64,000 bases of DNA from a virus (IMGVR_UViG_3300037316_000032:2559-66558), one strand, 5' to 3'. Positions 51,817 through 57,403 are shown, counted from the stretch's first letter. Notes: a model not told the origin generated them from the letters alone. Translations and numbers: made by a program.

Positions 51817-52485
51817 TTAACGTGGGGGGCTCGCTAGCAGCGCTCGTATCCGGTCGTACATTTGCACCTTCTCGGCGCTTTGGTTCCAAGCATGAACAGC
51901 AATCGGGTCCCCCTCTTTGAACACGGGATTGAACGCGCCGCGCTCATAGGTCGCGTCCATAGTGGCAGTGCCATAAATTGGGTGATTGGAGTGTGTGATC
52001 ACATCCGGCAGAACGCGAATAATTCCAAAGTCCTTCCCAATCATGCTCCACACAACATCAGAGTAATTGTGGTGAACACCAGCAATAGGAAGGATACCGT
52101 TCATTGCTCGCACTAGATCACCACCAAAACACGGGGCGCCAGGCAACGCCGCGGTCACGCCGGGCTCAGTCGACGTAGCCAAGTATCGTGATCCAGCCGC
52201 AGCTTCAAGTTTTTCCCACCACTGCGGCGTCATGGGCACTTGGTCGTCAGTGAGCAGGCCATAACAAGACTCATTCGGAAAATGCGGCAGTATCCACCGT
52301 AGCACATCACCAAACGATGTGGCGGAAATTTCATGTTTTTCGAACGGCCAACAATTATACTCACAAAGCTTTGGGTCTTCGAGGGTGAGCAGAACTTGAA
52401 ATTTATCCCACGGTGGAAGGCCACCTGGCGATGACACCAACTGGTCAAGATGGTGCGGGCGTCCGTAAGTTGGCATGAACCACAT
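51817..52485 (-). CDS. putative GT-A fold glycosyltransferase
   Basis: MPTYGRP start, LLTDD (DxD-like), H.YSD..W and H.NHP motifs. Confidence 0.6.
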   Translation of the reverse strand: MWFMPTYGRPHHLDQLVSSPGGLPPWDKFQVLLTLEDPKLCEYNCWPFEKHEISATSFGDVLRWILPHFPNESCYGLLTDDQVPMTPQWWEKLEAAAGSRYLATSTEPGVTAALPGAPCFGGDLVRAMNGILPIAGVHHNYSDVVWSMIGKDFGIIRVLPDVITHSNHPIYGTATMDATYERGAFNPVFKEGDPIAVHAWNQSAEKVQMYDRIRALLASPPR

Positions 52486-52496
52486 TTCGTTTATCC

Positions 52497-53204
52497 TTAA
52501 ACTGGAGAAAGCAGCAGCATCCCGTTTCCAACAGCTAACACATGCGTCCGAATGTTTTTTCGGTTTTTGTAGTAGGTAAGTAAATCACGACAGCCCCGCC
52601 CCTTGTCTGAACCTGGCACGGCGTTGAGCGCATCGCCATGAAAAAACACGTCATCAACGACGAGAAGACCGTGGGGGGACAACAGGCGTTCGCAATCCAA
52701 AGCAGCAGCGAGATAGTCCTGCTTGCCGCCATCAAGAAAGATAAAGTCAAACTTGCGGTGTGCGACCGCGAGGCGCGGGAGAACTACCTTTCCGTCGCCA
52801 ACGATCAGCTCAATCTTGTGAGCCAGATCGTTAGCCAAAAAATTCCGTGCGGCTATACCCGCGAAATCGGGACCTTTCTCAATAGTCGTTACACGCGCGC
52901 CATCGCCGGCCGCCACTGCCAGGTGCATCGTAGTGGAACCAAGAAGGGTGCCGACTTCCAAGATTGATTTTGCTTTGGTGAGCCGAATTAGGAACGACAA
53001 AAAAGCCACTGCCGCAGGCGTACTGGTCAGCCGCTTAATGTCTACCCCAGGAGGTTTTTCTACGGTGAACTTGTCTGATGAAAAATTAGCCGAAAAATCC
53101 AACAGCATCTGAGCTAGTTTTTGCTCATAGTTCTCCGGGTCATCAGCGAGATTTTTGAAAAAGGGTTGAGTAGGGAACATTTTATCTACATACCCGACCA
53201 TCAC
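52497..53204 (-). CDS. SAM-dependent O-methyltransferase (Methyltransf_3 / COMT-like)
   Basis: ILEVGT..G.T, VTTIE, FDFIFLDGGK..Y, GLLVVDDV. Confidence 0.88.
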   Translation of the reverse strand: MMVGYVDKMFPTQPFFKNLADDPENYEQKLAQMLLDFSANFSSDKFTVEKPPGVDIKRLTSTPAAVAFLSFLIRLTKAKSILEVGTLLGSTTMHLAVAAGDGARVTTIEKGPDFAGIAARNFLANDLAHKIELIVGDGKVVLPRLAVAHRKFDFIFLDGGKQDYLAAALDCERLLSPHGLLVVDDVFFHGDALNAVPGSDKGRGCRDLLTYYKNRKNIRTHVLAVGNGMLLLSPV

Positions 53205-53881
53205 GGCCTCCCTTGGTAGTTGTCAAACATCGTGTTGTTGTGATCGGCAGAGTACCATCGGATAGGCAATATGTTCGCACGCTCGATGCGCGCCCAGGAG
53301 TTGACTTCCCACCCAATGGTATTTGTCTTGATTATATTTTGCTTGCTCTCGGCCGCTGCTTCAATCGCAAACGGTCCAACCAGCGACCGGGGACAAATAA
53401 CGACACCGCCGCAGAAGCGCCAGCACGGGCTACTGTTGTTGTCCATGAAGAAGTCCGACCGATTGCCTTTATCCCAGCATCCCGGCATGACGATCTCATC
53501 CATACTGCCGGACTGCTCGACCCGGTGCAGCATGGCAGAAATGCACTCCTCCGTCACGCCATAGCAGTGCATGATCCCGTAGTCGATCCACACAAAGATA
53601 TCTGTCTCGGGGTCCTCTTGGCGTGCCTGCAACATCCACATCAGCTTTTGTTGTTGAATACATACACCATCCCGTGGGGTTTGGTCCGGCCAATAGAAGA
53701 ACCTCGCATTAGGAACTGATTTCAAGAAAGCGTACAGCCAGCAATTCTCCAGAGCGCCAAAGAACACCCTCTTGGAGAACGGAAGCGCTTCCAGGCGCGC
53801 GCCAAGCGCCATGAACTCCTCATGCGAGCGGCGGTGGTTGTCTGACAGCGGAACATATCCGCTCACGATTTTGATTTTCAC
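53201..53881 (-). CDS. HtrL/WlaTC-like putative glycosyltransferase
   Basis: K..WM..A...DP....FVWIDYGI, WRFCGG, WEVN.WA..E, WY.ADHN. Confidence 0.65.
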   Translation of the reverse strand: MKIKIVSGYVPLSDNHRRSHEEFMALGARLEALPFSKRVFFGALENCWLYAFLKSVPNARFFYWPDQTPRDGVCIQQQKLMWMLQARQEDPETDIFVWIDYGIMHCYGVTEECISAMLHRVEQSGSMDEIVMPGCWDKGNRSDFFMDNNSSPCWRFCGGVVICPRSLVGPFAIEAAAESKQNIIKTNTIGWEVNSWARIERANILPIRWYSADHNNTMFDNYQGRP

Positions 53882-56578: not shown

Positions 56579-56590
56579 GTCAAACCCCTA

Positions 56591-57193
56591 TTATGGACCG
56601 CCTGAAATTGTCAGCACGCCGCCGTTGCTCCAGACCTGGCCAGTGACGCCAGGATTGGAAGTCGGCGGAATGAACAAGGCGGGATTGTTACCTGTCGGGC
56701 CTGTTATGCCTTGGGCACCGTTATTACCTTGAGCGCCGGCAGCACCAGCGTTACCTTGCGGGCCAGTTGGACCAGCAGGGCCAGTGACGCCAGTCGGGCC
56801 GGCTGGGCCGGTTGCGGCACCAGTAGGACCGGTCGCACCTTGCAGACCTGTTACGCCGCTCGATTGACCAGCAGGGCCTTGTGGACCCTGGACACCTGCA
56901 TAACCTTGCGCGCCAACCGGACCTTGCGGACCTGTGGCACCAGTGGCGCTAGTGGCACCAGCGGGACCACCTGGGCCTGTTGGGCCAACGGCGGGGCCAG
57001 TGGCACCAGTCACACCAGTCGGACCAGTCGAACCTGTGGAGGCGCCGGCTGCGCCAGTCGGGCCGGCTGAACCTGTCGGGCCAGCAGCGCCAGTCACGCC
57101 ACCGGTGGGACCTGCATTGATAAAGTCCACGACCTGTTTCAGAACAGGACCAATTTGGTTGCGATCATAATTGTTTGAGGACAAGATCGTCAT
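56591..57193 (-). CDS. collagen-like protein
   Basis: G-X-Y run; N-term [10 protein letters not shown]-term [22 protein letters not shown]. Confidence 0.85.
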
Positions 57194-57205
57194 GGCAAAC
57201 CCCTA

Positions 57206-57403
57206 TTACGGTCCTGTCGGACCAGTTGCACCCGCCGTACCAGTCGGGCCAGCAGGCCCCGTTGGTCCACCCGCACCAGCATCGGCGTTCAAGATGAGAA
57301 CAATGTCTCGAAGGATCGAGCCAATCGCGTTTACGTCCGGCCGTTCCGGAACAGGAAGCGGAAGGGTCGGCATATAGTTCGGATCGGTTGCGCCTGTCGG
57401 CAT
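57206..57403 (-). CDS. short collagen-like protein
   Basis: GGAG SD before ATG 57403; GSILRDIV then [20 protein letters not shown]. Confidence 0.7.
   Translation of the reverse strand: MPTGATDPNYMPTLPLPVPERPDVNAIGSILRDIVLILNADAGAGGPTGPAGPTGTAGATGPTGP

Follow-up and report, generated by a model that had tools for sequence, protein, structure and literature searches.

The subject of this analysis is a cassette of seven genes on the minus strand of a 64,000-nucleotide stretch of viral DNA (IMGVR_UViG_3300037316_000032:2559-66558; hereafter the window). In the order of the minus strand, three collagen-like genes, colS, colA and colB, are followed by genes for a 670-residue three-domain enzyme, a 226-residue protein (p226), an O-methyltransferase and a 222-residue protein (p222). 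The window is taken from an IMG/VR virus record of 66,558 bases, rated complete by CheckV, of which it covers bases 2559-66558; positions are counted from the window's first base. A first-pass annotation made from the sequence alone had described a co-oriented, tightly packed cassette lying between the portal and scaffold genes, and all seven genes are open reading frames (ORFs) where it had placed them, with intergenic gaps of 38, 12, 12, 37, −4, −4 and 11 bases counted from the portal gene. Its placement of the cassette also stands, within a late operon that runs on the minus strand from the portal gene to the capsid gene. Two details of the boundaries change: position 57403, given as the end of the cassette, is the first in-frame ATG of colS, whose TTG start extends the gene to 57415, and p222 is not directly followed by the scaffold gene, three small conserved ORFs lying in between.

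The three-domain enzyme and its collagen-like neighbours

The 670-residue enzyme had been recognised as a fusion of a family 2 glycosyltransferase (GT2) with tetratricopeptide repeats (TPR). Both parts are matched by Pfam, PF00535 (Glycos_transf_2) at E 6.9e-8 and TPR families at residues ∼170-300, directly after the GT2 domain, and PF00535 matches 34 of 34 members of the enzyme family. A third domain of ∼330 residues, at 340-670, had been missed. The comparison that matters most is with SgtA of Clostridioides difficile, a 358-residue protein with a GT-A domain and then TPR repeats that is encoded beside bclA3; according to passages of PMC7157674, SgtA transfers beta-O-linked N-acetylglucosamine (GlcNAc) in vitro onto Thr of the BclA3 GPT repeats. 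We located the C. difficile sgtA locus (L085) via a primer from that paper, and sgtA and bclA3 are adjacent there.

BLASTP aligns residues 5-271 of the phage enzyme with residues 4-272 of SgtA (27% identity over 286 residues, 81.3 bits, E 5e-21). When a profile of 34 phage homologues is compared by hhalign, the match covers SgtA residues 4-335 of 358 (probability 99.6%, E 4.4e-24, 314 columns) and spans both the GT-A and the TPR parts. The family-invariant residues N13, E14, DTGSTD 36-41, R72, D93xD95, H144 and E145 are all matched in the SgtA alignment, and the invariant D93/D95 pair (DXD) aligns with DAD of SgtA. These alignments identify residues 1-335 of the enzyme as a true homologue of nearly the whole of SgtA and not a mere analogue, whereas the first-pass annotation had cited SgtA and BclA3 as an analogy.

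The likeness extends beyond the alignment. As with SgtA and BclA3, a soluble enzyme with a GT-A domain and then TPR is encoded next to a collagen gene in which Thr dominates the Y position of the G-X-Y triplets, colB ending 37 bases upstream of the enzyme gene. Unlike SgtA, the phage protein has the additional GH130-like domain of ∼330 residues, and so departs from the ∼360-residue two-domain plan, and it has a fixed HtrL-like partner, p226; two-domain forms of 362-399 residues occur in other phage lineages. The phage genes moreover lie in a head operon and not in a spore-coat locus, the identity is only the 27% given above, and the donor sugar is predicted by analogy.

Among solved structures, a search of PDB with the family profile matches GmaR (1.4e-15) and SunS (9.4e-15). 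The enzyme thus resembles the peptide S-glycosyltransferases SunS and ThuS, and the flagellin O-GlcNAc transferase GmaR of Listeria, in having a GT2 domain followed by a helical or TPR part. It is no SunS equivalog, since it reaches 33.6 bits with the NCBIfam SunS model, whose cut-off is 350, and the acceptor classes differ. Among the cassette ORFs we saw no gene for a glycocin-like peptide, although no search was aimed at one.

The C-terminal domain (340-670) bears a weak but repeated likeness to the GH130 beta-mannoside phosphorylases. PF04041 scores 18.5 bits (E 0.001), below its cut-off of 26, over the last 40 residues only; it is matched by 4 of 60 sampled members of the domain's own family (best E 1.4e-7) and by 1 of 34 close full-length homologues. 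This family is large: it has 6012 cluster representatives, of which 1922 reach E 1e-30 or better, and the domain is found in it singly, doubled or fused. Among the 60 sampled members, 22 carry GT2 domains and 15 methyltransferase domains, and some carry sulfotransferases. Cyanophage homologues are annotated as 'beta-mannosyltransferase' and 'MGP protein', and GH130-derived mannosyltransferases exist beside the GH130 beta-mannoside phosphorylases. With moderate confidence, we interpret the domain as a GH130-like glycan-extending module.

The description of the three neighbouring genes as G-X-T collagens holds. GPT, GAT, GVT and GPA are the commonest triplets in the cassette collagens, and both ColA and ColB score above the PF01391 cut-off of 27.2 bits; ColS has no Pfam match and is recognised by its triplets. 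In ColA, 44 G-X-Y triplets are framed by conserved modules, one of 27 residues at the N-terminus and one of ∼27 residues at the C-terminus. ColB is a paralogous collagen type with the N-terminal motif TYDDN..VLKQVVD, 45 triplets and homologues in relatives, and the N- and C-terminal modules of both the ColA-type and ColB-type collagens of relatives are strongly conserved. ColS has a helix-like N-terminal motif and then 7 triplets that run nearly up to the stop codon. The closest relative (locus L051) has a counterpart of 74 residues at the equivalent place, and in view of this equally short form we set aside the idea that colS is a broken piece of a longer collagen.

At the Y position Thr is more frequent than any other residue, filling it in 18 of 44 triplets of ColA and 17 of 45 of ColB. 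In an alignment of 18 ColA homologues the Y-position Thr columns have a mean identity of 0.71 (5 of 18 invariant), as compared with 0.19 for other Y residues and 0.31 for X residues, the figure for Thr being inflated somewhat by its being the commonest residue. Charged residues are almost missing from the cassette collagens, and their G-X-Y runs are broken several times; a triple helix is predicted from the repeats. Unlike BclA3, the phage collagens are short (69-216 residues), with terminal modules of their own and no BclA-type ends, and they lack transmembrane helices, which the BclA3 C-terminus is predicted to have in the passages cited (PMC7157674).

Two more proteins of the window contain collagen repeats with Thr at Y, a fourth small collagen-like protein of 166 residues and a 1038-residue protein that matches PHROG tail-fibre families (best E 3.9e-43). 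These are further candidate substrates, equally as good as the cassette collagens. The C-terminal motif of the 166-residue protein resembles, by eye, the ColA/ColB N-terminal motif VLKQVVDxINAG, and the ColA/ColB N-terminal module may have been reused at the opposite end of this collagen. We also observed a single tRNA-Pro(TGG) gene (1652-1728, minus strand). Its cognate codon, CCA, accounts for 35% of the Pro codons of the five collagen-type genes as compared with 19% in ten other late genes, and the phage may supply this tRNA for its Pro-rich collagens.

Enzyme and collagen genes in related phages

IMG/VR contains 244 relatives of the enzyme and 182 of the portal. We selected 80 loci by their portal, and the 47 that extend at least 3.5 kb downstream of it are informative. 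The enzyme is present in 47 of these 47 loci, and long collagens lie between portal and enzyme in 45 of them. The nearest cultured relatives are Rhizobium phages; one of them, RHph_TM27A, with a portal 58.5% identical to that of the window, has portal, three small ORFs, scaffold and capsid and no glycosyltransferase; it also shows no collagen match above the Pfam cut-off.

The pairing recurs outside the portal family. Among 10 outside enzyme clusters (60% identity), four have a collagen gene no more than 75 bases away and one has a collagen gene within 1 kb; one collagen-adjacent short enzyme (369 residues) from an outside lineage aligns with SgtA (E 3e-22). A single tail-fibre gene, 3.7 kb from an enzyme homologue, accounts for all four Pfam Collagen matches of the 308-kb Tunturi_5 genome, and Synechococcus phage DSL-LC02 encodes a homologue of the C-terminal domain directly beside a collagen-like gene and FkbM methyltransferases. 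Eleven enzyme-adjacent collagens were examined, and in all 11 Thr outnumbers any other Y residue, at 44-89% (69% in BclA3).

Partner genes, variable cargo and the surrounding operon

The gene for p226 is kept in 47 of 54 non-redundant family loci with enough sequence. Its family comprises 542 proteins, none of them named and none with a Pfam domain. For p226 itself there is no Pfam match at E up to 10 and no NCBIfam match, its profile finds no match among PDB sequences at E up to 10, and tblastn finds none among cultured phages. The label of HtrL-like protein given by the first-pass annotation thus fails in both Pfam and NCBIfam, and its backing comes from an Atlas look-alike search with the p226 homologue P0061 (37% identical). 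This search returns HtrL_YibB clusters, mostly of giant viruses, with a feature score of 0.97 and template-modelling (TM) scores of 0.84-0.85; the clusters nearest to P0061 carry PF09612 on 19-39% of their members, and the PF09612-aligned structure rows reach TM 0.78-0.85, in comparisons that use predicted models of the homologue. We regard p226 as a probable HtrL_YibB-like glycosyltransferase, a lead and not a family membership.

The 235-residue protein was described as an O-methyltransferase of the catechol O-methyltransferase (COMT) type, and this agrees with its match to PF01596 (Methyltransf_3; E 1.4e-23, 83.7 bits, cut-off 22). By sequence it is a class I S-adenosylmethionine-dependent O-methyltransferase of the caffeoyl-CoA O-methyltransferase/YrrM type, and its 136 relatives carry the source names YrrM or caffeoyl-CoA O-methyltransferase. 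The nearest relative (53%) is encoded among the structural genes of an unrelated HK97-type phage, two relatives are in IMG/VR, and those in mycobacteriophages (Papyrusvirus) show 37.8% identity over 54% of the query.

Eleven relatives of p222 were found, and the alignment has an invariant TDD (residues 79-81) where a DXD motif would stand. Its structure neighbours in the Atlas are viral glycosyltransferase clusters (TM 0.76-0.89), some of them methyltransferase-fused, with one row meeting the bar for PF00535. The GT-A-like label proposed for p222 thus draws on look-alike searches and on phrog_14945; p222 reaches no Pfam threshold and has no Pfam match, also at E up to 10. By hhalign, p222 shows no relation to the GT2-TPR profile, nor p226 to p222.

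A gene-neighbourhood survey had been proposed for collagen, GT2-TPR, HtrL and methyltransferase genes together. Collagen, enzyme and p226 do recur together, whereas the O-methyltransferase is found in 0 and p222 in 1 of 152 related loci. That one locus (L119) holds the only true p222 relative in IMG/VR. The O-methyltransferase and p222 are cargo particular to this phage and lie outside the conserved core.

Relatives carry other genes in the stretch from enzyme to scaffold, among them NAD-dependent epimerase/dehydratases, UDP-galactopyranose mutase (Glf), DUF4422, a sugar C-methyltransferase and several Methyltransf_24 and Methyltransf_11 proteins. In L119 (12274-20244) a sulfotransferase precedes the collagens, and p226 is followed by a Methyltransf_24 protein, a radical SAM/SPASM enzyme and the p222 homologue. 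In L044 (8445-12911) a 912-residue GT2-TPR protein with a C-terminal Methyltransf_11 domain is encoded 7 bases from a 573-residue collagen gene with 130 triplets. The variable genes of the relatives' islands are glycan enzymes. The earlier statement that no sugar-nucleotide genes are visible is correct as regards the seven cassette genes, the remainder of the window having been spot-checked, and needs amending for the relatives, whose islands have Glf and epimerase/dehydratase genes. Genes for lysis (GH25, phage lysozyme, peptidoglycan-binding domain) were also seen in the islands of L026 (13622-14776), L017 (6133-6771) and L027 (4621-5946). The portal-scaffold site is a general cargo hotspot that takes unrelated cargo too.

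Table 1. Positions of the cassette genes, flanking head genes and further collagen-like genes in the window.
Feature	Position	Strand	Characteristics
Portal	57454-59760	minus	PF23899 SU10_portal E 1.1e-8; phrog_332 E 3e-64; upstream island boundary
colS	57206-57415	minus	69 aa; TTG start; first in-frame ATG at 57403
colA	56591-57193	minus	200 aa; Pfam Collagen PF01391 E 1.1e-13, 51.2 bits
colB	55928-56578	minus	216 aa; PF01391 E 3.1e-16, 59.3 bits
Three-domain enzyme	53878-55890	minus	670 aa; SgtA-like GT-A (GT2) and TPR (∼1-335), GH130-like (∼340-670)
p226	53201-53881	minus	226 aa; start overlaps enzyme stop by 4 bases
O-methyltransferase	52497-53204	minus	235 aa; start overlaps p226 stop by 4 bases
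p222	51817-52485	minus	222 aa; phrog_14945 'glycosyltransferase' E 2.5e-10
Three small conserved ORFs	51525-51752, 51052-51303, 50803-51051		between p222 and scaffold
Scaffold-like gene	49670-50779		phrog_13678
Capsid gene	48591-49616		phrog_267
Terminator-like hairpin	48536-48563		11 pairs; A/T runs on both sides; 3' of capsid gene
Fourth small collagen-like protein	46572-47072	minus	166 aa; 24 triplets, 13 with Thr at Y; Pfam Collagen (six-frame search)
Tail-fibre-like protein	43266-46382	minus	1038 aa; two collagen stretches, 74 triplets, 43 with Thr at Y

The hairpin that follows the capsid gene is the sole strong terminator-like site from portal through capsid; weaker terminator-like matches number 22, as compared with 12.6 expected. 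The G+C content of the four enzyme genes is 0.51-0.54, as compared with 0.59-0.64 in the collagen and surrounding head genes (window 52001-56000), which is compatible with separate acquisition of the enzyme genes. A megablast search with 14.6 kb found no match among cultured phages.

Two public runs carry window 46000-62000; both are labelled peat metagenomes and they come from two studies, and no RNA data are listed among the public runs that carry the sequence. Contig pieces in the run of the second peat-metagenome study show 0 differences over parts of the glycosyltransferase and colA genes, and the gene arrangement is therefore no artefact of a single assembly. Some bins in the second-study run are at zero cover or low depth, and we draw no inference from them. 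In both runs the capsid region (∼49150-49500) also attracts diverged contigs of related phages. Elsewhere in the window, two ORFs at 26788-32067 (1759 residues) and 32080-34377 (765 residues) are very large and late, have no PHROG match at E 1e-5, and adjoin a homologue of an internal virion protein (36658-39648).

Candidate acceptors and possible roles of the cassette

The interpretation that we favour, and think probable, is that the phage uses the cassette to O-glycosylate its own collagen-like virion proteins, and that this protein-glycosylation island has been inserted into the late head operon in the interval from portal to scaffold. That phage enzymes would glycosylate the neighbouring collagens was already the core of the first-pass annotation, and the homology to SgtA, the recurring pairing, and the glycosyltransferase-less relative with no collagen match support it better than that annotation could know. 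ColS, ColA and ColB would be made late in infection in the host cytoplasm, probably together with the 166-residue collagen and the collagen tail fibre. The SgtA-like GT-A domain would then use a host nucleotide sugar as donor and place a first sugar on the hydroxyl group of Y-position Thr in G-X-T, the TPR domain gripping the protein substrate; by analogy with SgtA, this sugar would be an N-acetylhexosamine. The GH130-like domain and the HtrL-like p226 could extend the glycan, as could p222 in this phage only, and the O-methyltransferase may methylate a sugar hydroxyl, an acceptor suggested by its genomic context; the order of steps given here is the one that we infer. Glycosylated trimers would enter the particle as fibres, and a collagen coat on the head, of the kind that had been proposed, may result.

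The phage could benefit through helix stabilisation, shielding or adhesion. In worm cuticle collagen, Thr glycosylation stabilises hydroxyproline-free triple helices. The glycans of Bacillus BclA have O-methylated sugars, and anthrose carries a methyl group. Anthrose is placed on BclA in passages of PMC9614988, and by analogy these worm-collagen and BclA results suggest roles for the sugars and for the methyl group. The same passages describe mimivirus L230, which hydroxylates Lys and glucosylates the hydroxylysine of the collagen-like protein L71 (PMC9614988). In both cases a virus has collagen-like proteins together with an enzyme that glycosylates them or, here, is predicted to do so; unlike L230, with its animal-like chemistry and different fold, the enzyme here is SgtA-like and its predicted acceptor is Thr.

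Several observations weigh against a collagen-glycosylation island. All of the support comes from sequence, so that the sugar, the site and the virion protein are predictions, and the GH130, HtrL and GT-A labels all lie below family thresholds. Five of the 10 outside lineages have no collagen within 1 kb of the enzyme, and the GH130-like gene of Synechococcus phage S-SCSM2R adjoins that of a TPR protein, with no annotated collagen in the vicinity. The Papyrusvirus relatives of the O-methyltransferase have no glycosyltransferase neighbours, and the cultured-phage relatives of p222 (24-26% identical) stand amid DNA-metabolism genes, one of them being an annotated DNA methyltransferase fusion. 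Within the family, 9 of 63 non-redundant loci have the enzyme and no G-X-Y ORF from portal to enzyme, and 7 of 63 have only a short one; neighbouring collagens are thus not obligatory. Of the genomes of such loci, five out of five tested have collagen frames (450-705 residues) elsewhere, which supports the pairing weakly because collagen tail fibres are common in phages. Finally, the capsid protein is 66% identical to that of the glycosyltransferase-less Rhizobium phage and is longer than it by ∼13 residues at the N-terminus, a stretch rich in Ser, Thr, Gly and Pro that could be an alternative acceptor.

In one clade of relatives (L017, L018, L020, L025, L026, L028, L032), ORFs of 69-106 residues replace the long collagens. 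They have a small conserved N-terminal domain (REEAIAQ..GEE.EV) and a GTT/GST-repeat tail, and they may represent another Thr-rich acceptor.

The extra Ser/Thr-rich stretch on the capsid and the collagen-less loci would both fit a different explanation, namely that the enzymes glycosylate other virion proteins, whether capsid, tail or portal-proximal, and that the collagen genes merely share a variable insertion site, one that accepts unrelated cargo such as the lysis genes of some relatives. There is a parallel in cluster O mycobacteriophages, in which three glycosyltransferase genes stand downstream of an O-methyltransferase gene and their products modify both the capsid and the tail tube, as reported in passages of PMC11600133 citing Freeman 2023. 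Our phage resembles cluster O and F mycobacteriophages in combining glycosyltransferases with an O-methyltransferase gene, and the enzymes there act on the phage's own structural proteins; however, their targets in these accounts are capsid and tail-tube subunits and not collagens, and the likeness is one of gene set. We nevertheless consider this explanation unlikely, since the proven acceptor of the homologous SgtA is a G-X-T collagen, a collagen gene abuts the enzyme gene in 4 of 10 unrelated lineages, collagens are found in all but two of the 47 informative portal-selected loci, and the glycosyltransferase-less relative has no collagen match above the Pfam cut-off.

It is more doubtful still that the enzymes alter a host surface polysaccharide, for superinfection block or release, with no action on phage proteins. 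HtrL is encoded in the lipopolysaccharide (LPS) core region of Escherichia coli, and the Glf, epimerase/dehydratase and DUF4422 genes of the relatives' islands are common in O-antigen clusters. Such a role is also the usual interpretation of phage glycosyltransferases in genome papers, and passages of PMC7029224 and PMC10202952 mention collagen-like proteins and glycosyltransferases separately and ascribe the latter to DNA or LPS. Against this, the cassette genes are placed and packed within the late head operon, the enzyme is tightly linked to collagen genes, and its nearest relatives of known function have protein or peptide substrates. Membrane-spanning segments are absent from all the cassette proteins, the Kyte-Doolittle value of every 19-residue window staying at or below 1.5, and none of the seven matches a flippase- or polymerase-type family, a search that was extended to the rest of the window as a spot check of ten large ORFs against PHROGs. 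Gtr-type O-antigen modification was set aside on the same ground of there being no membrane proteins in the cassette.

That some of the genes, chiefly p222 and the O-methyltransferase, modify phage DNA is very improbable, though less firmly so for p222: p222 relatives in Streptomyces phages do lie between resolvase, nucleotide kinase and polymerase genes, a p222-like fold is fused to methyltransferase domains in 'Pas34' proteins (one of which bears the annotation DNA methyltransferase) and p222 has a match to phrog_2675 (E 4.6e-5), but the 66.5-kb genome has 0 matches to thymidylate-synthase/hydroxymethylase homologues (a control search was positive in 10 of 14 known genomes), p222 lies in a head-operon glycan island both here and in L119, and the methyltransferase is of a small-molecule O-methyltransferase class (PF01596) with its nearest relative in another phage's structural module.

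Returning to O-glycosylation of the collagens, the elements that are new here are the three-domain enzyme, its fixed partner, the variable tailoring set and the spread of these genes through an uncultured phage family. None of the literature searched describes an SgtA-like enzyme encoded next to phage collagens, and as far as we could find mycobacteriophages are the only bacteriophages whose particles are documented to be glycosylated by phage enzymes. A broader picture can be drawn from these elements, which we offer tentatively and as a whole would not yet bet on. A large uncultured soil and peat phage family, together with several unrelated lineages, may own a dedicated 'glyco-collagen' system in which the SgtA-like enzyme starts O-glycans on Thr of particle collagen fibres. 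Hypervariable tailoring genes, for methyl, sulfate, galactofuranose, deoxy-sugars and C-methyl groups, might then give each strain its own glycan, as a phage counterpart of O-antigen diversification. Such a system would serve to keep hydroxyproline-free helices stable and to adjust adhesion or the evasion of recognition, and it would share one origin with the spore-coat SgtA/BclA3 of Firmicutes.

If these proposals are correct, collagen O-glycosylation would be a widespread phage trait, given the 244 enzyme relatives in IMG/VR, with a defined acceptor motif (G-X-T) and a tractable initiating enzyme. It would explain the long-noted abundance of Thr-rich collagen repeats in phage fibres, and would provide a natural test of whether Thr glycosylation substitutes for hydroxyproline in helix stability. 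Glyco-collagen materials might be engineered on this basis, as might phage particles whose surface glycans are defined. The variable islands found close to fibre genes of phages, which are usually read as modifiers of host LPS or DNA, would deserve re-examination, and the spore-coat and phage collagen systems would be tied to each other in evolution.

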